Shown: positions 5,183 through 32,000 of the stretch, in pieces
Layout of the letters: every line of letters starts with the position of its first letter
Position numbering within the stretch: position 1 is the first letter of the stretch
Origin: Candidatus Saccharimonadota bacterium
Lineage (GTDB): Bacteria > Patescibacteriota > Microgenomatia > UBA1406 > GWC2-37-13
Direction: 5' to 3'
NCBI GenBank assembly: GCA_016699265.1
Contig: CP064967.1
Span: 870,001 to 902,000 of the forward strand
DNA: 32,000 bases
Program-made: the position numbers and the translations under genes
Notes under the pieces: generated by a model
Databases searched by the model: none
What the model was told of the DNA's origin: nothing
What the model saw: only the letters and a program-made list of their open reading frames with translations

Positions 5183-5599
5183 TTAATTAACTTTTCGCTT
5201 GCGAGGAGTCTCTCTGAATACCTCCATCTCAAGGACGTTTGTCGAGTCTAACTGTTCGTTGTTCACTAGTTTTAAAAGTCCCAAATCTTTTTGAAACTTA
5301 TCGTGAACCGACTCAAAGAACTTCAAAAATAATTTTCTGTCTTTAGACTTCAGGAGATTTTCTTTTTCTCTATATAATTGATCTAGCTTTCCTAGATTCC
5401 AAATCATCTCAATGAGCTTACTATCCATTCCATTTATTACCGAAAAGTCGCCGGAAAGAGGTCGTATCTTGAAGTTCATCATCTTGATCTCATCCATCAT
5501 GATGTCGAGTGATGGCTTATTTGCCATGACAGTTTTCTGGTAGTAACTAAGGAGGCTGATGACATCTTCTCTCTTATCGTTTTTGCCGATTGCCTTCAT
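5183..5599 (-). CDS. Hypothetical protein
   Basis: Open frame with no recognisable motifs. The start was moved to the ATG at 5599 (MKAIGKNDK...), so it does not overlap the divergent yqeY-like gene. Confidence 0.45.
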   Translation of the reverse strand: MKAIGKNDKREDVISLLSYYQKTVMANKPSLDIMMDEIKMMNFKIRPLSGDFSVINGMDSKLIEMIWNLGKLDQLYREKENLLKSKDRKLFLKFFESVHDKFQKDLGLLKLVNNEQLDSTNVLEMEVFRETPRKRKVN

Positions 5600-5604
5600 A
5601 GTGG

Positions 5605-5610
5605 TATAAT
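5605..5610 (+). promoter_or_regulatory. -10 box TATAAT (with upstream TGG), 6 nt upstream of the ATG at 5617
   Basis: gtggTATAATtatggtATG. It lies within a 17-bp divergent intergenic gap. Confidence 0.5.
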
Positions 5611-5616
5611 TATGGT

Positions 5617-6057
5617 ATGCTACGACAGAAATTGCAAGACGATCAGCTAAACGCACTTAAGACGGGAAACAAAGAAGTTCTAGAGATTCTCCGCTTCGTA
5701 ATCGCAAAAATAAAGAATCAGGAGATTGAAAAGAAGACCGAGCTTACTGATGAGGAAACCGTTGCAGTACTCAAGAAAGTAGTTCGAGAGCTAAATGAGT
5801 CAAAAGATGCTGCGGTCAAGGCAGTCCGACAAGATTTAATTGAACAAAACGAGAAACAAATCTCAATAATTTCACCTTATTTACCTCAGGAGCTTTCCGA
5901 TGAAGCGCTTGAAAAAGAAATTCAAACCGTGCTAGACAACAACAAAGAGTTATTCGATACGAATAAAAAAGCAATTATAGGAATCTGCATGAAGGAACTT
6001 CGATCTAAGGCTGACGGAACAAGAATTATGAAGCTTCTTCAACCTCACCTCGCCTAA
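5617..6057 (+). CDS. yqeY: GatB/YqeY domain-containing protein
   Basis: 146 aa. MLRQKLQDDQLNALKTGNKEVLEILRFVIAKIKNQEIEK... is typical of the YqeY family. Confidence 0.85.
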   Translation: MLRQKLQDDQLNALKTGNKEVLEILRFVIAKIKNQEIEKKTELTDEETVAVLKKVVRELNESKDAAVKAVRQDLIEQNEKQISIISPYLPQELSDEALEKEIQTVLDNNKELFDTNKKAIIGICMKELRSKADGTRIMKLLQPHLA

Positions 6058-6429: not shown

Positions 6430-6500
6430 TTACGGGGCCGGGAGTTGAACCACGGCCTAGGAGATTATGAGCCTCCTGTGCAACCGTACACTACCCCGTA
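6430..6500 (-). tRNA. tRNA with anticodon CAT (Met, or Ile2 if lysidinylated); atypical T-stem
   Basis: Hand-folded from the reverse complement. Acceptor TACGGGG/CCCCGTA (7 bp); D-arm GTGT-ACGGTT-GCAC; anticodon arm GGAGG-CTCATAA-TCTCC. The T-arm is CCG(T)GG-TTCAACT-CCCGG with one bulged base; discriminator A; no encoded CCA. Confidence 0.7.
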
Positions 6501-10245: not shown

Positions 10246-11943
10246 TTAACCAAAGGTGAAGGCGAAGGCGCGAATGCCAGGGGATTTAAACCTTAATCTG
10301 AGTTGATGCTGAGCAGAATCACCTTTTAGATCTATTAGTTCATATAGTCGGGCAGTGTCCAACTCCACGACGCCGTTTTTTACATCTTTACCGCTTAGCG
10401 TTACTGGCACAACCTTACCATCGAGATTAACCTCAAACGATCCATAACTCTCTGAAGTTATGACAAGAAAAACTTTATTGGCATGGAACTGAAGATCTAT
10501 CGTTGATCCAGCTTTTGACTCTGCGTACTCTGGCATTGTCTTCCAGTCATCACTCAGCTGAAGATATGAGTTAGGCTCTGCTCGAAGAGAGCCCAAATAT
10601 GTCTCACGAGTTTTCACATCTTTTGGAGTGGTTTCTTCAAGCTGTGACTTTTCTTCGGTTACTTTTTTTCCCGCCTCCGCTAATAACTTTCTGATATTTT
10701 CCTCGGTTATATCGTAGTCACCCTCACCAAAATGGGTGTAACGAACATTACCATCAACATCGATAAGATATTTTGCCGGCCAGTAATGGTTGCTGTAAGC
10801 ATTCCATGTACTAAAATCGTTATCCTGCGCAACTGGATATTTTATTCCAAACTGTTTAATTGCATTTTGAACATTCTCTGTCTTTTTCTCAAACTCAAAC
10901 TCTGGTGTATGAACCCCAATGACAACAAATCCTTGGTCTTTGTACTTTTCATGCCAACTCGTTACAAACGGTAAAGTTCGAATGCAGTTGATACATGTAT
11001 AGGTCCAGAAATCGATCAAAACGACCTTGCCTTTAAGTTGAGCTATTGAAACCGAAGCATTGCCGTCAGCAGGAAGATTTAACCATTTCTCTATGCCGAC
11101 AAACTCAGGGGCTTTTCCTAATTTAGGTAAAATATCGTTGACTGAGTTCATTGGCTTGCCCTCAATAATCGTGCTTTGACCTCCTTTTTTTCCTTTCAAT
11201 TTGTTAAGTTGCGCCTTGACCACATCGTTACTTTCTAAATTGACTAGGAATTTAGAGTATTGTGGAAATGTATCAAGTAGTCTTGCCTGAATTACCTTAT
11301 CCTGATTTGTTAAAATCAAAGCCGCGGTCAAAATCATTACCACCCCAAAAACCTGTTGAATTCGACCTGTGTATTTTGAGAGTGCTTTGCTTTTTGCAAA
11401 AACACGATTCCCCAATAAAGCAAAAAGGAATAGAGGTATCCCCACACCAATTACATAAACTGTAGTAACGAGCACTATCTGAAAGTTAACTGCTTGAGTA
11501 GCTGCGAGTGTTGCGATCGTCGCAAGAATGGGCCCTGCGCATGGAGTCCACACTAACCCAAGAGCTAGTCCAGTTATAAAGCCGCTTGTAAATCCTGTCC
11601 CCTCCCTGTGCGTAAGCCCTCCCAGCCTTCCACTTAGACGACTTACTACGCCCTCCACTATTTGATTAAGTTGAGGTATGAGTAAGGTGAAACCAAAAAA
11701 TGCAATTATTCCTACCGCAAACATCCGCAGTAAGTCTAGGTCTAAAGGAATAATTGATACTATGTAGGAAATAGTAAGCGTGAAAATCGCAAAACTAGAC
11801 ATTATTCCAACGGTAATACCAAGAGGTTTGCGGTGACCACTTTGTGCGCTGGATGAAAGAATAATAGGGAGTAAGGGCCATATACAAGGCGCCGCTATCG
11901 TTACAAGCCCAGATAAAAATGCGAATATTAAAAGAACTACCAT
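10246..11943 (-). CDS. DipZ-like fusion: CcdA/DsbD-type thiol-disulfide transporter + thioredoxin-like (TlpA/redoxin) domain + C-terminal beta domain
   Basis: 565 aa. TM-embedded Cys motifs IAAPCIWPLLP and WTPCAGPIL; redoxin motif FWTYTCINCIRTLP followed by GVHTPEFEFEK...YWPAKYLID. Confidence 0.85.
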   Translation of the reverse strand: MVVLLIFAFLSGLVTIAAPCIWPLLPIILSSSAQSGHRKPLGITVGIMSSFAIFTLTISYIVSIIPLDLDLLRMFAVGIIAFFGFTLLIPQLNQIVEGVVSRLSGRLGGLTHREGTGFTSGFITGLALGLVWTPCAGPILATIATLAATQAVNFQIVLVTTVYVIGVGIPLFLFALLGNRVFAKSKALSKYTGRIQQVFGVVMILTAALILTNQDKVIQARLLDTFPQYSKFLVNLESNDVVKAQLNKLKGKKGGQSTIIEGKPMNSVNDILPKLGKAPEFVGIEKWLNLPADGNASVSIAQLKGKVVLIDFWTYTCINCIRTLPFVTSWHEKYKDQGFVVIGVHTPEFEFEKKTENVQNAIKQFGIKYPVAQDNDFSTWNAYSNHYWPAKYLIDVDGNVRYTHFGEGDYDITEENIRKLLAEAGKKVTEEKSQLEETTPKDVKTRETYLGSLRAEPNSYLQLSDDWKTMPEYAESKAGSTIDLQFHANKVFLVITSESYGSFEVNLDGKVVPVTLSGKDVKNGVVELDTARLYELIDLKGDSAQHQLRLRFKSPGIRAFAFTFG

Positions 11944-11944
11944 T

Positions 11945-12526
11945 TTATAAATTCGAGAGTTCCGACACTAGAGTCTGCACGTCCCAAGTATCGGCTGAGT
12001 TAATTACTACCTGCCCACCCTTCAGAACAATCTTATGATGTTGGTAAGGAATCTTAAATTTTTCTGCGAGAGATTTTTCATCTTCATCGGTCTGATCATC
12101 CTTAAAGTTCACTCTAAACCCAGCGACATCGTCTCTCTTTAGCTTGTTGAAGCCTTCGATAAGTTCCGTTTCCTGAGCTCTACAGATTGGACACCAGTTC
12201 GCATAAAATTCTAGGTAAACAATCTTGCCTTCACTCAATGCTTTTTCATAATCCTTCAGGTTAAATTCAGAGAAGGTACTATTTTTTTTAGCAAGTATCT
12301 TTGCCATCATTACCCCATCTTTTTGTACCGTTTCATTATCGCTAACTGCCATTACTTCTTTTTTCTCCATCGCCTCGGTTTCAGCAGATTCTATATTCTC
12401 TCTCTTGGTCATTGCTTCCTTACCGGCGCTCTGCAATTGCCAAAAAAAGAATCCTCCAACTACTAAAAATAGTATTATCATCGCCACCACAACAATCTGC
12501 ACATTACCCTTTTTGAATTTATTCAT
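11945..12526 (-). CDS. Membrane-anchored thioredoxin-fold protein
   Basis: 193 aa with an N-terminal TM helix and the CxxC motif FYANWCPICRAQE. Confidence 0.75.
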   Translation of the reverse strand: MNKFKKGNVQIVVVAMIILFLVVGGFFFWQLQSAGKEAMTKRENIESAETEAMEKKEVMAVSDNETVQKDGVMMAKILAKKNSTFSEFNLKDYEKALSEGKIVYLEFYANWCPICRAQETELIEGFNKLKRDDVAGFRVNFKDDQTDEDEKSLAEKFKIPYQHHKIVLKGGQVVINSADTWDVQTLVSELSNL

Positions 12527-14581: not shown

Positions 14582-14981
14582 GGGGATGTACAGAATCGAT
14601 GAGGAATTTGCACGTTTACAAATGGTTAGGGCGTACTAGAACGTCACTCAGGAAAAATCTAACTGCAGATGAACAATCACATGCAGCCGAAGCTTTTGCC
14701 TACAGCAATGCTTATAGCAATAACATGCAATTTGCGTTTGCCTAAGTAAAACTTTAGCCTCGATATTAGTTTCCCTTGATTCTACTAATATTTGAGGTAA
14801 ACCAATCAAGGTGAGGCAACATTACATTTTCAGTTGGTAATGAAGTCGAAAAACCCATAACTGACTGTCAGACAGTAGTTTGTTTGTTTACTTTGTCCGA
14901 CATGCGTGAAAACAATCTATCCCTAACTAAACCTTTGTATTTGTGTTTCTTCAGACGGGGGCTCAACACCCCCCATCTCCA
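14582..14981 (+). ncRNA. ssrA: tmRNA (ssrA), about 400 nt
   Basis: 5' GGGGATG pairs with 3' CATCTCC, including the G3:U wobble. T-arm GGGGG-CTCAACA-CCCCC, discriminator A. The internal tag ORF at 14665-14742 reads ADEQSHAAEAFAYSNAYSNNMQFAFA, followed by TAA at 14743-14745. It lies directly downstream of smpB. Confidence 0.9.
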
Positions 14982-15105
14982 CACTCCGCTCTCGACATTA
15001 AGCCGGAGCTTCGTGTGTCAGTCCACCATTAGGATCTTTATCTGTGCTTCCGTAATAGACGTCTTCGCAACATTCCTAAATCGTGTAATATAGTCTTACA
15101 AATCT

Positions 15106-24979: not shown

Positions 24980-25984
24980 CTACGCAGTTTGCTCCGACTT
25001 TAGCCTCAGGTTAGCCATTTCATTAATTACCGTCTCTATACAAAGAGTTATAGGGATGGCGAGAAGCAAGCCTAAAATACCTCCGAGCTTGCCTCCAATA
25101 ATGAGAGCTGTGAGAGTAACGATGGGGTTTAGTCCTACTGCACGTCTCATTACTACTGGAACTAGGACCTGGTTCTCTACTTGTTGAATGATGAAGTACA
25201 GTACAACTACACTTAAACCAGCAAATATATTCTGAGAGGCTGTCACGATAAAGGCGGGTACAGCAGAGATCGTCGGACCTAAAATTGGAACAACTTCAAG
25301 TAGTCCTGCAAATACCGCGAGTGGAAGAGCGTATCTCACTCCAAGAACTGTAAGCCCTATGTAAGTTACGAGTCCGATTGACAACATCAGAATTAGTTGA
25401 CCCCATAGCCAAGCCCTCATCCTAAGTTCTGCTTTTTCAAAAATCTCAGAGATGGTGTCAGCATTTTTTTTATCAAAAAATTTCATAAGTAAACGTCTAA
25501 TTACATGTTCTTCAATTAGGAAATAAAAACTAAAGAAAATTGTTGAGATTAGAAAAATTACGTTTGAAAATGTACTTTTTACAAAATCAAACGCCCCATT
25601 CGTGACACTAGATCCGTACTGAGAAAATAAATTTTCACTCAGCTTTATATCGCTACCTAGCTCAATATTTTTAAGATAGTCTGGGAAGTTTTTGAATAAG
25701 ACTGCTGATTCCTTGGCAACTGGGGGGATCAGCCATGCAAATAAAGATCCTATCCCGATAATTGTAAGAGCAAAAACAACAAGAGTTGAAGCGACACGAG
25801 GAATTCGTAGCTTTTCAAACCAAGAAACAACCGGGTTGAATGCGCTCATGATGATAAACGCAATGATGAACGAAAATAAAAGCTCACGAACAACCCATAC
25901 AGCCTGTATCAGAACCAGAAAAACTACAGTAAAGACGATGGTCTTAGCTGATATCTCTATTTTATGCACGTGTTGATCCTTCAT
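24980..25984 (-). CDS. AI-2E family transporter (PerM/UPF0118)
   Basis: 334 aa, polytopic, with the family-typical C-terminal region QQVENQVLVPVVMRRAVGLNP...GILGLLLAIP. Confidence 0.85.
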   Translation of the reverse strand: MKDQHVHKIEISAKTIVFTVVFLVLIQAVWVVRELLFSFIIAFIIMSAFNPVVSWFEKLRIPRVASTLVVFALTIIGIGSLFAWLIPPVAKESAVLFKNFPDYLKNIELGSDIKLSENLFSQYGSSVTNGAFDFVKSTFSNVIFLISTIFFSFYFLIEEHVIRRLLMKFFDKKNADTISEIFEKAELRMRAWLWGQLILMLSIGLVTYIGLTVLGVRYALPLAVFAGLLEVVPILGPTISAVPAFIVTASQNIFAGLSVVVLYFIIQQVENQVLVPVVMRRAVGLNPIVTLTALIIGGKLGGILGLLLAIPITLCIETVINEMANLRLKSEQTA

Positions 25985-26012
25985 ATATATACATATAGTA
26001 CAACATCTATTA

Positions 26013-26054
26013 GTTCTTCGTTCTTCGTTCTTAGTTCTTCGTTCTTAGTTCTTT
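26013..26054. repeat. Six perfect-register tandem heptamers GTTCTT(C/A/T)
   Basis: gttcttc gttcttc gttctta gttcttc gttctta gttcttt. The last unit overlaps the comF stop codon. The array lies 29-71 nt upstream of the AI-2E transporter start on the minus strand, where it reads (G/T/A)AAGAAC. Confidence 0.85.
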
Positions 26055-26739
26055 ACCCATGCCCAAGAGAGAAGGCGTACACACGCTTTACCCCCGCTCT
26101 TTTTAATACCTCGGTTGCGGACCTAATAGTGGATCCTGTCGTGATGACGTCGTCGACCAACATCACCTCGGAGGGAAGAAGCTTTTTTTTGACCTTAAAA
26201 GCAGAGGTCGTGTTTAGATATCTTTTTAGTTTCGATTTCAATTGCGCCTGTGCGGGAGTATTGCGGACTCTTTCCAGAAGATCTATAATCTCAACTTCCG
26301 GTCTGAGCGATCGCATAAACTTACAGATTATATCTGACTGATTAAAGCCACGTGCGCTCATCCTTGAGCGATGGAGAGGTATTGGGAGTAGCGGAAGAGT
26401 CTTAAAGGGGGACCTAGATGAAAAGAGGAGAAGTCCGGTTGGAGTTATCGATAAATTCAAAAGTTCATTCAGCGCTTCTTTTGCCAGTCTGTACTTTGCG
26501 GTCTTCAGTAGCTTTTTTAAAAATGGATTATATACGTATAGTGAAACTACCCCATCTAGACCAAAGTTTCTCCTACATGAAGGGTGAGTAAAACCATACA
26601 AACTTGGCTCCCTACACTGAAAACATCTCTGTTTTTCACTAAATATCAGTCGGTTTTGACAGTTAAAACAGATGAAGCTTCCTATGGCCCCACATCCAAC
26701 GCATATCTTCGGAAATAGCAAATCCTTGATAAAATGCAT
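26053..26739 (-). CDS. comF: ComF family protein (phosphoribosyltransferase domain with N-terminal Cys4 zinc finger)
   Basis: CVGCG...CFNCQ...CFQC...HPSC, and the PRT motif VMLVDDVITTGSTI. Confidence 0.85.
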   Translation of the reverse strand: MHFIKDLLFPKICVGCGAIGSFICFNCQNRLIFSEKQRCFQCREPSLYGFTHPSCRRNFGLDGVVSLYVYNPFLKKLLKTAKYRLAKEALNELLNLSITPTGLLLFSSRSPFKTLPLLPIPLHRSRMSARGFNQSDIICKFMRSLRPEVEIIDLLERVRNTPAQAQLKSKLKRYLNTTSAFKVKKKLLPSEVMLVDDVITTGSTIRSATEVLKRAGVKRVYAFSLGHG

Positions 26740-26930
26740 GAAATAAAAGACATCTTAATAATAGAGTTACAGAACAACAAAATCAATCAACTTCGTTCAA
26801 ATAAATTAGGGCACTTCCTGACGGAATCAACACAAGTTGCAAATTTGAGGCTAAAAATTGACACTGATGTGGTTTATGGGTAGTTTGATACACTATTTAT
26901 ACTACAATTAGTGCTTGACAAGTGCTCGGT

Positions 26931-26946
26931 ACACCATATATATTGT
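26931..26946. promoter_or_regulatory. Candidate NrdR box ACACCATATATATTGT
   Basis: Matches 14 of 16 positions of the published NrdR-box consensus acaCwAtATaTwGtgt (from memory). It overlaps a TTGACA(26915-26920)-N16/17-TATATA-like promoter upstream of nrdR. A weaker box, ACACTATTTATACTAC, lies at 26890-26905. Confidence 0.45.
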
Positions 26947-26954
26947 TTTTGCGC

Positions 26955-26960
26955 TATAAT
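26955..26960 (+). promoter_or_regulatory. -10 box TATAAT, 7 nt upstream of the ATG at 26968
   Basis: gcgcTATAATattacttATG. Confidence 0.45.
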
Positions 26961-26967
26961 ATTACTT

Positions 26968-27414
26968 ATGATATGTCCGTTTTGTAAGAACGCCGATACA
27001 GAGGTCATAGAGACAAGAGTGTCAGAACAGGGTAATGTTATTCGCCGAAGAAGGAACTGTCCTAAGTGCGAGAAGCGTTTCACTACCTATGAGCGAATAG
27101 AGGAGATTCCGATGCTAGTTATCAAAAGAGATGGTAAGCGAGAACGATTTAACCCTGAGAAATTAAGAGACGGAATTCTAAGAGCTACGGGAAAGACAAC
27201 GGTCACCGCAGGGCAGATTGATGAAATAGTTTCAAATGTAGAGTCTGAGATGAGACAAAAGGATGAGACCGAGATCGACAGCAAGATAATCGGAAACTTG
27301 GTTGCTAAGTACCTTAAGAAGCTCGATAAAGTTGCGTACATCCGGTTCGCGTCGGTATTTAGACGCTTTGTGGACGTAGAAGACTTTGATAAAGAAGTAC
27401 AAAAGCTTAAGTAA
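26968..27414 (+). CDS. nrdR: Transcriptional repressor NrdR (zinc ribbon + ATP-cone)
   Basis: MICPFCKNADTEVIETR...RRRRNCPKCEKRFTTYE, then an ATP-cone (VIKRDGKRERFNPEKL...). The start is taken at the internal ATG at 26968. Confidence 0.93.
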   Translation: MICPFCKNADTEVIETRVSEQGNVIRRRRNCPKCEKRFTTYERIEEIPMLVIKRDGKRERFNPEKLRDGILRATGKTTVTAGQIDEIVSNVESEMRQKDETEIDSKIIGNLVAKYLKKLDKVAYIRFASVFRRFVDVEDFDKEVQKLK

Positions 27415-27542
27415 TTGCTTTTTGGTTATAGCGTTATATTTACATACATATAGCACTACAGCAAGATGACAATTGTAGGCGATAAGGGCGACCTAAAAAT
27501 ATCATTGCGACAATTATTAATTTTAGTATTATATAAACCCTT

Positions 27543-28727
27543 ATGAAACTCACCGGAATCTCACAAAAAGCATTCCTCGATCGATATTCGTTAAAAGATA
27601 AAAAAGGTAAACCTGTTGAAAAGACACCGGACCAAATGTGGCGTCGAATTGCAAAGTCAGTTGCCGAAATTGAAAAAAAACCTGCACGAAAACGTTGGGA
27701 AAAGGAGTTTTATGATGCTATGGACAACTTCAAGTATGTCCCAGGCGGACGAATCTTAGCCGGTGCTGGTACGGGATACGATGTAAGTTTTTATAACTGT
27801 TTTGTTATTCCATCTCCAAAAGATTCACGTGGAGGCATTTTAGACACTCTAAAACAGATGGTTGAGATTATGGCTCACGGAGGTGGAGTAGGAATCAATC
27901 TTTCATCACTTCGACCAAAAGGCGCTCGTGTTAGAAAAGTAAATGGTTTCTCCTCAGGGCCTATGAACTGGGCTGAGCTTTTCTCACTCGCCACTAAGGA
28001 TATCATTCAGCAGGGAGGAACCCGACGCGGCGCTCTTATGCTTATGCTGTGGGACTGGCACCCTGATATTGAGGAGTTTATCACCGTTAAGCAAGATCTG
28101 AATAGAATTAATGGAGCCAATCTTTCACTCTGCATTTCCGATAGCTTTATGGATGCGGTAAAAAAAGATGCTGATTGGCCATTGGTTTTCCCCGACGTCA
28201 CAGATCCTGAGTACGATGAAAAATGGAACGGCGACCTTGAGGTCTGGAAGAAGCTAGGAAAAAAAGTTAAGGTGCAACGAGTTGTGAAAGCTCGCTATAT
28301 CTGGGATCTTATTGCGGAGGCAGCATGGAAGTCTGCAGAACCAGGAGTAGTGTTTATGGAACGCTACAACAAGATGCACAACAACTACTACTGGAATCGC
28401 ATCAACTGCGTAAATCCGTGTGGTGAAGAGGGTCTCCCAGCATGGGGAGTCTGTAATCTTGGCTCAATTAATCTATCGGCCTTTGTAAGTGGCAACGATA
28501 TTGATAAAAAGGGAGTCTTTGACTATAAAGAACTCAAAAAGACAGTTGCTCAGGCAGTGCGTTTTCAGGATAACGTCGTCGATATGGATCCGTATATATT
28601 TGAGGGGATCCGTGAAACACAGTTGAATGGAGAAAGAAGGATTGGACTTGGCACAATGGGCCTTGGGGACACATTAATCAAGATGCACATTAGATATGGA
28701 TCACCCGGAGAGTCTCGAGTTCATTGA
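27543..28727 (+). CDS. nrdJ: Adenosylcobalamin-dependent (class II) ribonucleotide reductase, N-terminal segment; the frame ends after a +1 shift site
   Basis: YVPGGRILAGAG, GGGVGINLSSLRPKG and the active-site NPCGEEGLPAWGVCNLGSINL. The segment ends ...IRYGSPGESRVH*, whereas homologues continue ...IRYGSPESLEF.... Confidence 0.85.
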   Translation: MKLTGISQKAFLDRYSLKDKKGKPVEKTPDQMWRRIAKSVAEIEKKPARKRWEKEFYDAMDNFKYVPGGRILAGAGTGYDVSFYNCFVIPSPKDSRGGILDTLKQMVEIMAHGGGVGINLSSLRPKGARVRKVNGFSSGPMNWAELFSLATKDIIQQGGTRRGALMLMLWDWHPDIEEFITVKQDLNRINGANLSLCISDSFMDAVKKDADWPLVFPDVTDPEYDEKWNGDLEVWKKLGKKVKVQRVVKARYIWDLIAEAAWKSAEPGVVFMERYNKMHNNYYWNRINCVNPCGEEGLPAWGVCNLGSINLSAFVSGNDIDKKGVFDYKELKKTVAQAVRFQDNVVDMDPYIFEGIRETQLNGERRIGLGTMGLGDTLIKMHIRYGSPGESRVH

Positions 28728-29970
28728 GGAAATCTATAGACTTATTAGAGATGAAGCGTATAGGGCATCTATGGAAATCTCCCGTGAAAAAGGTTCGTTC
28801 CCTAAGTTCGAACCAGTTCCATTCTCTAAAGGTCTTTTCATTAAACAGCTACCTCAAGATCTACAGACTCAGATTAAAAAATACGGAGTCAGAAACTCTG
28901 TAATTTTGATGCAGGCTCCTACTGGAACAACGGCTCTCGTAGCCAACACTACCTCAGGAATTGAGCCTGTTTTCGAGTATGAGTTTACAAGAAAGTCCCG
29001 TCTTGGCGAAGACATTATCAGACATCACCTATACGATCAGTGGTTTAAAAAGCACGGTGAAGCATTCAAGAAAGGTGAGATCGAAAAACCAGAATACTTT
29101 GTATCCGCAAACGATCTTTCACCTGAGGACCATGTAAGAGTTCAGGCTATTATTCAGAAATACGTTGATGCCTCTATCTCAAAAACGGTTAACGCTCCCA
29201 ACTCTCAAACAGTTGAGGATGTTAAGAGGATCTATACCTTAGCCTATGATCTTGGCTGCAAAGGGATTGCATATATGAGAGACGGATCGAGACAGGGCGT
29301 CTTAATAAGGAAAGAGGAACCAGTCGCAGTAAAAGCCGTTGAGGTTTCGACTACTCCACAGTATGCGGTTCACCCACGACCTATGGTCGTACAGGGCTCA
29401 ACCTATCGTATGAATACCCCCGTTGGAACCGCCTTTATCACCATTAACACAAATGGTGGTGGGGAGCCTCTTGAGGTCTTTATTAATGTGGGCAAAGCCG
29501 GAACAGATGTCTATGCGATGGCAGAGGGATTGGGCAGAATCGTCTCATTAGCCCTTCGTTTTTCGTCACATCTTGCTCCTCATGTACGAATTAAGGAGAT
29601 AGTTGATCAGTTAGGTAGTATTGGTGGAGCTCGTGCAATGGGCTTTGGGAAAGAAAGAATCAAAAGTCTTCCTGATGCTGTTGCCAAAGCACTCGCGATG
29701 CACTATCACCTAGGAGCCTATGCTGAAGCCCCAAATGCAAATGGTCACAGTAATGGAAATGGCCACGTTACAAATGGACATGGGTCTAATCATGATGAGC
29801 CGAAACTTGTAACTGAGGTTACTCAGCCGATGCTTACAGCTGTTGCTCCAGTACCACCGCCAGTCGTCCACACTCAAAGCTTTGATATATGTCCGAGCTG
29901 CGGTGAAGCCTTATTGGCTCATGAGGAAGGTTGTACCAAGTGCTATGGATGCGGATTTAGCGCATGCTAG
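28696..29970 (+). CDS. nrdJ: Class II ribonucleotide reductase, C-terminal segment (frame +1 relative to the N-terminal segment)
   Basis: ...PESLEFIEEIYRLIRDEAYRASMEISREKGSFPKF, LMQAPTGTT, SISKTVNAP and a C-terminal Cys-rich tail CPSCG...CTKCYGCGFSAC. Confidence 0.85.
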   Translation: MDHPESLEFIEEIYRLIRDEAYRASMEISREKGSFPKFEPVPFSKGLFIKQLPQDLQTQIKKYGVRNSVILMQAPTGTTALVANTTSGIEPVFEYEFTRKSRLGEDIIRHHLYDQWFKKHGEAFKKGEIEKPEYFVSANDLSPEDHVRVQAIIQKYVDASISKTVNAPNSQTVEDVKRIYTLAYDLGCKGIAYMRDGSRQGVLIRKEEPVAVKAVEVSTTPQYAVHPRPMVVQGSTYRMNTPVGTAFITINTNGGGEPLEVFINVGKAGTDVYAMAEGLGRIVSLALRFSSHLAPHVRIKEIVDQLGSIGGARAMGFGKERIKSLPDAVAKALAMHYHLGAYAEAPNANGHSNGNGHVTNGHGSNHDEPKLVTEVTQPMLTAVAPVPPPVVHTQSFDICPSCGEALLAHEEGCTKCYGCGFSAC

Positions 29971-30101
29971 AGTGGTTGAAAAGTTATGAAGGTTGTAAAG
30001 TTAAAAAGCTTGTTAACTGGTTAATTAGTTAGCCGGTTAACCAGCATACTCACAAACAAACCTTTAAAAACCTGTAACTTTCTGAACTTTTAAAATTATT
30101 T

Positions 30102-30611
30102 ATGGCTATTTATACGCGTACTGGGGATAAAGGGACGACCGGTCTCTTCGGAGGGAAGAGGGTCTCCAAAGCTAGTGTGCTGATTGAGGCTGCGGGAGTA
30201 ATTGACGAACTTACAACGTATGTGGGTTATGTTGCGCAAGCAATTCCCGGCGTTGAAACACAAAAATCTTTAGTAGAAATACAAAAAGATCTTTACAGAA
30301 TAATGTCGGTTGTCGCCGGAGCAAATATACCTATAGCGTATCTCGAGGGTAGAGCCAAAGATTTTGAACTAAACATAGATAGAATCACGCTAAAGCTGTC
30401 AAATCTCAATAGCTTTATATTACCTGGTGGAACCAAAGATGCGTCCCTATTTCATATCCTTAGAGTATTGACTCGCAGGGCAGAAAGAGCAGTTGTTTCG
30501 GCAAAATCTGACGCTATAATAATTCAGTACTTAAATCGGTTATCCGATTTATTTTTTACATTAGCACGGAAATACGCAAAAGGAAAAGAAATTAAAATAA
30601 AAACTTTGTAA
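30102..30611 (+). CDS. pduO: PduO-type ATP:cob(I)alamin adenosyltransferase
   Basis: MAIYTRTGDKGTTGLFGGKRVSK...DELTTYVG...LPGG...LHILRVLTRRAER is the canonical PduO/MMAB N-terminal domain. Confidence 0.9.
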   Translation: MAIYTRTGDKGTTGLFGGKRVSKASVLIEAAGVIDELTTYVGYVAQAIPGVETQKSLVEIQKDLYRIMSVVAGANIPIAYLEGRAKDFELNIDRITLKLSNLNSFILPGGTKDASLFHILRVLTRRAERAVVSAKSDAIIIQYLNRLSDLFFTLARKYAKGKEIKIKTL

Positions 30612-30770
30612 ATGCTGGTTTGGGGAATCCCGTGTAATTCGGGAACAGTGCCGCTACGGTGATGCCGGTGGTCAGCAATCAGGAGTCAGATCTCAGAACT
30701 GACGACTGAAAACTGAAAACTAGTTAGTCCGACTACCAAACAAGCTCAAAACCCCGAGCAGGGAATATAT
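30612..30770 (+). promoter_or_regulatory. Cobalamin riboswitch-like 5' leader (compact, class-II/variant-like aptamer plus expression platform)
   Basis: GCUGGUUUGGGGAAUCCCGUGUAAUUCGGGAACAGUGCCGCUACGGUGAUGCCGGUGGUCAGC carries the conserved cobalamin-aptamer strings GGGAA, CGUGnAAUUCG hairpin, CCGCnACnGU and AUGCC. It is closed by GCUGG/UCAGC. A B12-box-like AAUCAGGAGUC follows. The SD-like AGGGA at 30760-30764 lies 6 nt before the ATG at 30771. Confidence 0.65.
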
Positions 30771-31892
30771 ATGACAGTAGAACAAGTACGACCTCGCGTC
30801 GAAGAAGCTAAGCCTCAGACAACCTCAGATATTTTTAAGTACTACAGCGTTCCCAACGAAATCGCGTTTCTTGACAGAGTTCGTCAAGGTGGTGTTGGCC
30901 TGCAAGATTCTGACATATATGTCCAGGAAAATGTCGAGCGCTTTTTAGGAGAGTTTGCGGGGCAGGTCCCTTACACTAGAATTTCATATCTGCAGAAGGA
31001 CGGCCTACTAAAGTATGCTGGAATGGACCTTACCGAATCGTACAGGAGTACTAGCAAAAACAGTGATAGGGAGCTTGATGAATGTATCGGGTATGAAAAA
31101 ATTCAGGCAGGATTTGGAAACGGCGCTCATACGGCTGTGTGGATTAGCCCACCCAAAATCGCGGACTACGGGTTTGTATTCTTCTTTCAGAGAGACCCAC
31201 AAAATCCAGAACATGTCCGTGAATTCATACTTAGATATAATGAGCGTAAGGGCGATCTGGCAACGAGCCAAAAGATTCTGGACAGGATCGATCCACTCCA
31301 GTCGTTCTCAACAGATAGAGATTATCTGCAGCGGCCACACATATTTTTCGAACAAGACGGTAACCATCCAACTCTACAAACTATCATGGCTGGTGTTGGA
31401 ATTTCTTCCAAGCAGATTGAAAGCTCCAAACAATTTGAAGAGCGAGTCCGCGCCGAACTTGGTGGCTGGACCAATCAATATTCTCAAGCAGTTTCTCATG
31501 GAGATGTTGATCTGGCTAAATTAGTACTCCGATCGATTTATAACCGAGCATGCGAAATTAAAAAAGAGATCGATGGTGGTGCGGGCACATATGCTCCACC
31601 TAGGGCGCTTCCTATTGACGGCACTTTACTACACTTTTATGCGAAGCAGGAAAGACCAGTGAGTCAGGGGAGCTGCCCTGTCTCACAAACCAACTTTGAA
31701 GATCCTTTTAGTCCAACCTCTATCATGGACCAACTCGTTGCAGGAAATACACTAAACAACGTCGTCACGGAGACTCAACATTTCACATGCCCAAACTGTA
31801 ATCACAAAGCAGATGGACCCGTAGGCGATCAGTGTCCTTCATGCAGTATTACCCGCGCTCAATGGGCAGAAAAGGGCAATAAGGTCTGTTAA
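30771..31892 (+). CDS. Hypothetical cytosolic protein (373 aa) with a C-terminal CxxC...CxxC zinc ribbon
   Basis: Clean ORF with no TM segment or signal peptide. The C-terminus reads HFTCPNCNHKADGPVGDQCPSCSI. I recognise no other family motif. Confidence 0.6.
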   Translation: MTVEQVRPRVEEAKPQTTSDIFKYYSVPNEIAFLDRVRQGGVGLQDSDIYVQENVERFLGEFAGQVPYTRISYLQKDGLLKYAGMDLTESYRSTSKNSDRELDECIGYEKIQAGFGNGAHTAVWISPPKIADYGFVFFFQRDPQNPEHVREFILRYNERKGDLATSQKILDRIDPLQSFSTDRDYLQRPHIFFEQDGNHPTLQTIMAGVGISSKQIESSKQFEERVRAELGGWTNQYSQAVSHGDVDLAKLVLRSIYNRACEIKKEIDGGAGTYAPPRALPIDGTLLHFYAKQERPVSQGSCPVSQTNFEDPFSPTSIMDQLVAGNTLNNVVTETQHFTCPNCNHKADGPVGDQCPSCSITRAQWAEKGNKVC

Positions 31893-31901
31893 GATGAAAG
31901 A

Positions 31902-32000
31902 ATGGATGACTCTCACACGCCACTAAAAAATCCTTTGATAAGCACCCCTACAAGCGGTAAGGAGACGGAACCTGCACCACACCAACCTCAAGAAATGATG
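31902..32000 (+). CDS. Possible start of a further ORF (open to the window end)
   Basis: ATG at 31902, then MDDSHTPLKNPLISTPTSGKETEPAPHQPQEMM... with no stop before the window edge. It begins 10 nt after the preceding stop. Confidence 0.3.
   Translation, partial: MDDSHTPLKNPLISTPTSGKETEPAPHQPQEMM

Follow-up and report, generated by a model that had tools for sequence, protein, structure and literature searches.

The stretch of DNA analysed here (the window) comprises 32,000 nucleotides (nt) of a Candidatus Saccharimonadota genome (assembly GCA_016699265.1, contig CP064967.1, positions 870,001–902,000). Near its 3′ end lies the gene order nrdR–nrdJ–pduO–riboswitch–X–Y, where the riboswitch is of the cobalamin (Cbl, vitamin B12) type and X and Y are the two genes that follow it. 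We identified nrdR, nrdJ and pduO via Pfam, which confirms that X stands directly after nrdR–nrdJ–pduO, as proposed in a first-pass annotation that a model had made from the letters of the window. The riboswitch is placed in the spacer directly 3′ of pduO, on the same strand as nrdR–nrdJ–pduO; pduO is upstream of it and hence outside its control. nrdJ encodes a class II ribonucleotide reductase (RNR) and is the sole B12-dependent gene seen in the DNA examined.

At the Rfam gathering thresholds the whole window contains no cobalamin riboswitch, and its only matches are a transfer-messenger RNA (tmRNA) and one transfer RNA (tRNA). At relaxed thresholds RF01689 (AdoCbl-II) matches positions 30605–30682 with 28.3 bits, as compared with a gathering score of 36.5 (E 7.7e-5, 261 nt searched), but the alignment is partial and contains four non-canonical pairs; the score of RF00174 is below that of RF01689. 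We collected loci that carry homologues of X, 16 from GTDB genomes, 22 from JGI metagenomes and others by exact look-up (numbered with the prefix L below), and built a covariance model, R1, on 11 short orthologous leaders with the window left out. R1 has one full-model match in the window, at 30611–30748, with 61.5 bits and an E value of 8e-16 (64 kb, both strands). Among the X loci it finds exactly one match per source in 39 of 39 non-redundant sources, and one also in L054, such that every X homologue with upstream DNA bears the same riboswitch. The degenerate core string GU[GA]CCGCnnCnGU occurs once per locus and always before X (492 kb, both strands), the sole stray match being on the opposite strand of L002.

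The Rfam check that the first-pass annotation had proposed therefore gives a divided answer: no match at gathering in the window, and a match at or above gathering (RF00174 or RF01689) immediately 5′ of X in 14 of the 16 genome loci. Leaders under gathering are those of L005, L013, L054 and the window, and these are clearly real despite their scores. The window falls under the threshold because a 66-nt insertion in P6 makes the Rfam model take a decoy 3′ half. A reading of the Rfam null as absence of a riboswitch is overturned by the comparative evidence. On that evidence the spacer after pduO is a true cobalamin riboswitch, with an RNA structure, a conservation and a universal linkage to X that are directly visible in the aligned leaders, and with cobalamin as its presumed ligand.

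The riboswitch follows X rather than the nrd genes. In L012 (5847–7203) X is solitary, with neither nrdJ nor pduO nor Y inside 6 kb and with MgtC/DUF4010, BipA, DUF2130 and 5S rRNA around it, and it retains a riboswitch that RF01689 scores at 46.7 bits. All other X loci with the riboswitch adjoin nrdJ or pduO, which strongly bears out the linkage that the first-pass annotation expected of homologues. In L053 (5001–8430) X and the riboswitch are both lost and pduO–DUF6580 and Y–trx are retained; an IS200/REP-type tyrosine transposase, an open reading frame (ORF) of 106 amino acids (aa) and a NUDIX gene take their place. Because of these two loci, we regard the riboswitch as X's own leader and not as a feature of the nrd cluster.

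The architecture of the aptamer was defined on a core alignment of 34 distinct leaders, from which a script had removed the linker, the P6 extension and any P2 module. Over P4, P5, P6, P13 and the L5–L13 contact together, 98.5% of the cells are paired, versus 85.7% in shuffles (0 of 500 as high) and 20–45% in slid registers, and 9 of the 18 pairs show compensatory change. In P4, four of five pairs covary and 98.8% of the cells are paired; P5 has the pair counts UA:29 and AU:5, the middle pair of P6 GC:29, CG:4 and UA:1, and the L5–L13 pair GC:31 and AU:3 (AU in L006, L016 and L034). P13 is 100% paired, with C-G to A-U swaps among the leaders. For P1/P3, a model-based alignment of 37 leaders, which leans to the R1 model by construction, has compensatory changes in 10 of 10 pairs (17 of 20 pairs overall), and a per-leader duplex survey places the closing helix at the same position in leaders of very divergent sequence. 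Covariation is hence found in P1/P3, P4, P5, P6, P13 and L5–L13, a positive outcome of the proposed check of homologous leaders.

Most of the core strings named in the first-pass annotation (GGGAA, the CGUGUAAUUCG hairpin and CCGCUACGGU) are present and correspond to the conserved cobalamin core. Two others were misplaced: 'AAUCAGGAGUC', taken for the B12 box, and AUGCC, taken for core, both sit in the P6 extension, which is variable and ranges from 2 to 102 nt among the orthologues. The real B12 box is AGUCCGACUACC; it lies directly 5′ of the P3/P1 3′ strand, and its A, G, C and G positions are invariant in the 34 leaders.

Features of the nrdR–Y cluster and of the riboswitch between pduO and X (window coordinates)
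Feature	Position	Strand	Basis or remark
nrdR	26911–27414		Pfam
nrdJ, class II RNR	27543–29970, two ORFs		Pfam
pduO, PduO-type ATP:cob(I)alamin adenosyltransferase	30102–30611	+	PF01923, E 7.6e-45
Spacer pduO–X, 159 nt	30612–30770		holds cobalamin riboswitch
Cobalamin riboswitch aptamer, four-way-junction core, no P2 module, 66-nt P6 extension	30611–30748	+	R1, covariation
P1/P3 5′ strand, GCUGGUUUGG	30614–30623	+	partner 30736–45
J3/4 GGAA	30624–27	+	part of GGGAA 30623–27
P4 stem and L4 loop UGUAAUU, CGUGUAAUUCG hairpin	30628–32 / 30640–44 (span 30628–44)	+	covariation
P5 (AG/CU)	30647–48 / 30654–55	+	pair counts
L5 loop UGCCG	30649–53	+	partner L13
Conserved core string CCGCUACGGU, L5/P5/P6	30651–60	+	sequence
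P6 CGG / CCG	30657–59 / 30729–31	+	covariation
P6 extension, variable, 66 nt; holds decoy GCCGGUGGUCAGC and 'AAUCAGGAGUC'	30660–30725	+	R1 insertion
B12 box AGUCCGACUACC	30726–30737	+	invariant A, G, C, G
P1/P3 3′ strand, CCAAACAAGC	30736–30745	+	R1, duplex survey, covariation
Hairpin P13 (CCC 30752–54 / GGG 30761–63)	30752–30763	+	in all leaders
L13 loop CGAGCA	30755–30760	+	kissing loop with L5
Shine–Dalgarno-like AGGGA, overlaps P13 3′ strand, 6 nt before ATG	30760–30764	+	sequence
Gene X, intact 373-aa ORF, cytosolic	30771–31892	+	ORF call
Gene Y start, cut off at window end	31902–32000	+	130 aa in L050

The P6 extension also bears on how the aptamer closes. The first-pass annotation gave the 5′ strand GCUGGUUUGG two mutually exclusive partners, UCAGC at 30672–30676, closing a compact ligand-bound aptamer, and CCAAACAAGC, forming an anti-aptamer helix near the ribosome-binding site (RBS), and it read the toggling between them as the switch. 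Both partners exist and both pairings are possible. The RF01689 alignment takes the proximal half, which it does because GCCGGUGGUCAGC resembles a 3′ half, and R1 still gives 50.3 bits to the proximal-only stretch. In L025, the only related leader with the same architecture, R1 likewise takes the proximal half, at 47.3 bits, and GCCGGUGGUCAGC is identical in the window and in L025. Against this, distal closure gains 11 bits over proximal closure (61.5 versus 50.3) despite the 66-nt insertion and is 10 kcal/mol more stable (-45.8 versus -35.8), and in every leader of the duplex survey the 5′ strand has its partner in the strand after the B12 box. The look-alike GCCGGUGGUCAGC is confined to the window, the near-identical L050 and L025, the proximal copy deviates at B12-box positions that are invariant, and the L025 fold uses the conserved GCCGGUGGUCAG to make the basal helix of its P6 extension. 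Moreover, the universally conserved regulatory element is P13/L13 and not a toggling helix. A two-partner switch is thus very improbable, CCAAACAAGC being the 3′ strand of the aptamer's own closing helix. The compact RF01689 alignment, with closure at 30676, is ruled out as the true aptamer by the R1 scores, the fold stability and the P1/P3 covariation, although a proximal fold may form as a minor alternative, given the choice of R1 in L025.

We compared the RNA with the cobalamin riboswitches of clan CL00101 (RF00174 Cobalamin and RF01689 AdoCbl-II, comprising Cbl-I, Cbl-IIa and Cbl-IIb). It shares with them the P3–P6 four-way junction, GGGAA in J3/4, a 7-nt L4, GCCGC in L5, a B12 box ahead of the P3/P1 3′ strand, and an L5–L13 kissing loop to an RBS-bearing hairpin; it would also share the expected OFF switch on translation. 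Judged by its sequence, the RNA is a member of this clan by all features tested save the window's own Rfam score. Its architecture is an unusual mixture of subtypes. P1 continues into P3, with one mismatch and without a P2 module between them, which is Cbl-II-like, whereas the P6 extension is Cbl-I-like. Cbl-I riboswitches have a P2 module together with a large P6, both of which are present in L004, L008 and L009 and the first of which is not present in the window; Cbl-II riboswitches lack P2, as does the window, but its P6, at 66 nt, is not short. As a P2-less form with a long P6, it is a hybrid converse to that of yvrC in B. subtilis (PMC7367189). A short P6 is found in L001, L002, L007, L012, L015, L022, L024, L028, L038, L044 and L045. 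The orthologous leaders as a whole span a range: at one end are minimal Cbl-II-like forms whose P6 loop has 2–3 nt (L001, L002, L007 and others), at the other Cbl-I-like forms in which P2 is joined by a P6 extension of 19–102 nt (L004, L008–L011, L014 and others). The series, of which L002 4464–4540 and L010 5710–5904 are contrasting examples, extends over both RF01689 and RF00174, and the L054 leader (5542–5647) has a 34-nt insertion in L4.

Downstream of the aptamer, P13 with a CG-n-GCA/GUA loop is present in 34 of 34 core-aligned leaders, 6–10 nt before the start codon, and in L006, L009, L016, L034, L037 and L041 the AUG is inside P13. The L5 loop UGCCG is complementary to CG-A-GCA of L13, and the L5–L13 kissing loop is the regulatory contact common to all cobalamin riboswitch classes (PMC7367189). 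A transcription-terminator platform was rejected, as no terminator-like structure was found after the aptamer on the + strand of the leader. Because P13 lies near or over the start, the kissing loop is shared by all classes and no terminator was seen, we infer translational repression, most likely through kissing-loop occlusion of the RBS. Bound cobalamin would stabilize the L5–L13 kissing loop and thereby P13, and the stabilized P13 would bury the Shine–Dalgarno sequence AGGGA or the AUG and shut off translation of X–Y. The riboswitch would then be an OFF switch acting at translation of a two-gene unit, and X and Y would be made only at scarce B12. The structure itself is seen in the leaders, and for the OFF logic we rely on the mechanism known for the family. 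As to other signals around the leader, the 3′ end of pduO contains, at 30532–30561 (+) and ~50 nt before its stop, a hairpin of 8 pairs (3 G-C) that has a T-run and resembles a terminator; it is probably due to chance, as it is not evident at the same place in L001. A scan of 29900–32000 for sigma-70-type promoters found none, and TATAAT-like strings upstream of several leaders were spotted by eye only.

The first gene under this leader, X, belongs to a large family. An exhaustive profile search yields, counted at 50% identity, at least 459 representatives at E ≤1e-3 and 292 at E ≤1e-10, and a word-indexed search returned 35 X clusters, all unannotated. Among the best 150 matches listed, most are 350–540 aa long and a few are shorter fragments; in nearly all of them a single stretch covers most of the profile. 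No Pfam domain was found in the sampled members, and none of 10 representatives looked up has an informative name. Searches of X against Pfam, NCBIfam, PHROGs and PADLOC gave no relative, with only zinc-ribbon noise in Pfam and NCBIfam, and the PDB, searched by sequence and by profile, gave nothing; X is as unrecognizable as the first-pass annotation had said. That annotation also had X without transmembrane segments, and we found none (maximum Kyte–Doolittle value 0.92 in a 19-residue window, versus 2.36 for a DUF6580 control).

We ran AlphaFold and Foldseek on X, as had been suggested, and obtained a confident model (predicted local distance difference test, pLDDT, 83; predicted template modelling score, pTM, 0.78) with no significant fold match. 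The model has an N-terminal helical pair and a five-stranded PAS-like sheet with inserted helices (69–157); its C-terminal half contains a long helical hairpin (213–269), a disordered loop with Cys302 and a zinc ribbon. The best Foldseek match in the PDB has an E value of 0.15 and a query TM score below 0.2, and BFVD gave nothing. Over 172 representatives, E61, R100-E101, G107, S126-P127, Y133, P189 and Cys302 are near-invariant, Cys302 being conserved at 98–99%; P128, which completes the SPP motif, is near-invariant as well. The ribbon reads C340-x2-C343-x11-C355-x2-C358, with cysteines 88–96% conserved, so that its spacing is CxxC-x11-CxxC and not the CxxC-N12-CxxC given earlier, and 77% of the same representatives have a Cys at the extreme C-terminus. 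Two apparent likenesses to NrdJ were discarded. A GSCP motif in X seemed akin to the TSCPD domain of NrdJ, but X has no Pfam TSCPD and the window NrdJ is without that Cys; the C-tail of X seemed homologous to the zinc-finger tail of NrdJ, but the match is one CPSC knuckle only. X differs from its counterpart in L050 at 4 sites, all synonymous, from which purifying selection on X is evident. Between the window and L025, identity is 97% for NrdR, 90% for NrdJ, 90% for Trx, 86% for Y, 76% for PduO and 49% for X. X is a real, cytosolic, fast-evolving protein of no known family or fold.

Y starts ~9–60 nt after X among the loci and encodes 130–150 aa, with a disordered N-terminal two-thirds and a confident helix–helix–hairpin C-terminal domain (pLDDT >90). 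Pfam, NCBIfam and Foldseek gave nothing significant for Y, and a hydropathy scan found no transmembrane segment (maximum Kyte–Doolittle value 0.23, 19-residue window). At least 141 clusters make up the Y family, and two independently chosen Y homologues led to the same nrdR–nrdJ–pduO–X–Y cluster with a convergent trx. The order nrdR–nrdJ–pduO–X is kept around X members that are only 21–25% identical (L048 and L049), and the cluster also surrounds a barely recognizable X in L054 (profile E 5e-10). The X–Y pair is found in nrdR–nrdJ–pduO(–DUF6580) clusters of Roizmanbacteria/Microgenomates, members of the candidate phyla radiation (CPR), and X and Y are specific to Roizmanbacteria/Microgenomates. 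A search for PduO homologues, aimed at lineages without X, returned only Roizmanbacteria. The metagenome-assembled genomes of L001–L004, L006, L008 and L012–L016, which are GTDB representatives, are titled 'uncultured Gammaproteobacteria bacterium', an evident mislabel given to carriers of a Roizmanbacteria-type cluster; the names 'Nanoarchaeia' and 'Weeksellaceae' are attached to two Y homologues.

In 13 loci with X, a gene for a DUF6580 membrane protein separates pduO from the riboswitch, and such a gene likewise follows pduO in L053, which is without X and riboswitch (altogether L004, L008, L009, L011, L029, L031, L036, L037, L039–L042, L047 and L053; for example L008 5207–5692 and L053 5534–6061). 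The protein has 160–175 aa and multiple transmembrane segments, matches PF20221 with 165 bits and bears a faint likeness to the ECF riboflavin S-component. In these bacteria DUF6580 is a candidate permease for corrinoids, and its S-component-like nature and its position between pduO and the riboswitch give the cluster the look of a unit for B12 supply. No DUF6580 gene was found in the 32-kb window. The idea that DUF6580 replaces X was dropped, since the two co-occur in 13 loci. A ~518-aa gene holds the place between pduO and the riboswitch in L002, L013, L014, L017 and L022–L024 (e.g. L022 4305–5861); it was considered as B12-related and rejected, as its product is a divergent PurF-like amidophosphoribosyltransferase (TIGR01134, 231 bits, under the 350-bit cut-off). 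We found no description of the X/Y family or of DUF6580 in the literature.

What X and Y do has to be compatible with proteins that are soluble, presumably made only at low B12, and tied to NrdJ and PduO and often to a candidate permease; X has, besides Cys302 and the Cys4 ribbon, a Cys at its very end in many members. The functions suggested in the first-pass annotation, namely corrinoid trafficking, processing or salvage, or a B12-sparing backup, are plausible. We favour a corrinoid role. Taken as a whole, an OFF-switch riboswitch over X–Y together with a role in corrinoid acquisition, trapping or processing has, in our estimate, an even chance of being correct. The more specific proposal that X and Y capture or process imported corrinoid upstream of PduO draws on the gene context and is put forward tentatively, at somewhat less than even. 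In this scheme the corrinoid would be handed from X/Y to the adjacent PduO and then to AdoCbl-dependent NrdJ (AdoCbl, adenosylcobalamin). Cys302, placed in a flexible loop, would act as a ligand of cobalt or as a redox thiol, and the C-terminal zinc (or iron) ribbon with the terminal Cys as a redox or docking tail; X could be a cytosolic trap or chaperone with Cys–Co ligation, or a thiol- or thioredoxin-dependent enzyme of deligation or reduction. By extension, X may found a new fold family of cytosolic corrinoid handlers that, with Y and DUF6580, would constitute an unrecognized B12 salvage route feeding PduO and NrdJ, a proposal that we hold more likely to fail than to stand.

Known B12 systems resemble the cluster in part. 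Riboswitch-run operons of B12 uptake and salvage (btuFCD, ECF-CbrT and BtuM, with pduO- or cobA-type adenosyltransferases) share with it B12-repressed genes beside an adenosyltransferase and a B12 enzyme and, in many relatives of the cluster, a small S-component-like membrane protein (DUF6580). They differ in that X and Y are soluble and that the putative permease and PduO stand outside riboswitch control; X and Y are, besides, without similarity to BtuF, BtuM, CbrT, BtuG, BtuH, CblC, CobU, CobS, CobT and CbiZ. BtuM ligates the corrinoid via a Cys, and CblC dealkylates it. The near-invariant Cys in a flexible segment of X, a possible cobalt ligand or nucleophile, resembles BtuM and CblC/MMACHC by analogy only, whereas X has no sequence or fold similarity to them, is not a membrane protein and has no flavin/nitroreductase-like fold.

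Several points weigh against a corrinoid role under cobalamin control. The window's own Rfam score is under gathering, and the selectivity of the RNA for AdoCbl versus methylcobalamin or hydroxocobalamin is not readable from sequence. X is without similarity to known B12-binding or B12-processing folds in the Foldseek PDB and PDB profile searches; no sequence or fold similarity was found to PduO/CobA/EutT, PF02310, CblC, CobU/S/T, CbiZ or BtuF. The genes most readily seen as supplying B12, pduO and DUF6580, escape regulation, since both precede the riboswitch. Neighbourhood alone is weak evidence, because general synteny is found in related small genomes, in which SpoIID, PIN_5 and dnaA recur. 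Finally, X appears from the identities above to evolve faster than NrdJ, PduO, Trx and even Y, which is unusual for a core enzyme; such a rate fits a binder or a regulator equally well.

The rate and the predicted folds lead to a different proposal, namely that X–Y is a B12-starvation regulator or checkpoint, a pair made at low B12 that re-programmes nrd (e.g. by antagonizing NrdR) or holds back replication until dNTPs can be made. In X, a helical hairpin and a zinc ribbon accompany a PAS-like alpha/beta core, and its best weak fold matches are PAS/PYP-like (TM ~0.4 on the target), while the C-terminal domain of Y has weak but recurrent winged-helix Foldseek matches (ArsR, NmtR, CzrA, MecI, ScpA and Rpc34). 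A zinc ribbon is present in the neighbouring NrdR too, and zinc ribbons are common among nucleic-acid binders. The fast evolution of X suits a non-catalytic protein, and the cluster is near dnaA and dnaN in several loci. However, all these fold matches are non-significant (E ≥0.15 for X and ≥2 for Y), the 99%-conserved Cys and the set of invariant charged residues, acidic and basic, are more suggestive of a ligand site or active site, and we know of no precedent for a cobalamin riboswitch driving a protein regulator of RNR. We consider such a regulator unlikely.

The adjacency of X to nrdJ and to a thioredoxin gene raises yet another possibility, that X–Y is a B12-sparing backup providing cobalamin-independent deoxynucleotide supply, or another NrdJ-dependent process, when B12 is absent. 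Cobalamin riboswitches classically repress B12-independent isozymes (nrdAB, nrdDG and metE in other bacteria), and the regulatory logic and the adjacency to B12-dependent nrdJ are common to X–Y and such riboswitch-repressed isozymes (nrdAB/nrdEF/nrdDG and metE). Cys302, the ribbon and the terminal Cys resemble in style the thioredoxin-reduced C-terminal tails of RNR, and the PurF-like gene inserted in some loci hints at a theme of nucleotide metabolism. In contrast to the isozymes, however, neither X nor Y has a domain that defines MetE or one of the RNR classes: X has no Pfam match and no RNR barrel, radical-SAM, glycyl-radical or kinase motif, and comparison with RNR classes I–III found no ten-stranded alpha/beta barrel (PF02867 or NrdD) by Pfam and no RNR structure by Foldseek. 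A protein of 373 aa that evolves fast is unlike a central enzyme, the likeness to the NrdJ tail comes down to the single CPSC knuckle, and the solitary X of L012 is without nrd context. A backup function is accordingly rated as quite improbable, below the regulator, and the corrinoid role of X and Y remains our preferred reading.

The window from 25901 to 32000 is 99.6% identical to contig JBARPI010000049.1 of GCA_049642925.1 (locus L050), the proteins of which carry the label 'Microgenomates group bacterium'; the genome of the window is likewise assigned to Microgenomates/Roizmanbacteria (CPR). Relative to L050, where nrdJ is uninterrupted and encodes 808 aa, an extra G at 28707 splits the window nrdJ into the overlapping ORFs 27543–28727 and 28696–29970; the sole visible B12-dependent enzyme is thus interrupted either through a fault of the assembly or through a frameshift particular to the strain. 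The heptamer GTTCTTM forms a short tandem run at about 26010–26050, between an AI-2E-family permease gene and a comF-like gene, and three of the C/A positions in this run (26019, 26026 and 26040) differ from L050. The two RNA genes matched by Rfam are the tmRNA at 14582–14984 (+; RF00023, 69.3 bits) and the single tRNA at 6430–6500 (−; RF00005, 43 bits). A 564-aa DsbD-TM/redoxin/thioredoxin-like fusion at 10246–12526 (−) adjoins a second thioredoxin-like protein. Among the other housekeeping genes of the window are guaA, recA, ubiA and those for RNase Y and a comM-like Mg-chelatase ATPase.

Cobalamin riboswitches are among the most reliable pointers to B12-related genes, and here one of them marks a large family (at least 459 clusters at 50% identity) with a confident but unmatched predicted fold. 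The finding also exposes a blind spot of Rfam, in that long P6 or L4 insertions sink true riboswitches below threshold, and the orthologous leaders, which extend across Cbl-I and Cbl-II, constitute a natural series for studying peripheral elements and the evolution of ligand selectivity. The regulon is of a known type, a cobalamin riboswitch with B12 homeostasis genes, and its effector proteins are entirely new. X, Y and DUF6580 are concrete, testable candidates for B12 handling in CPR/Patescibacteria, and the recurrence of riboswitch–X–Y beside nrdJ throughout a CPR group of very small, uncultured bacteria points to an undescribed part of B12 handling.

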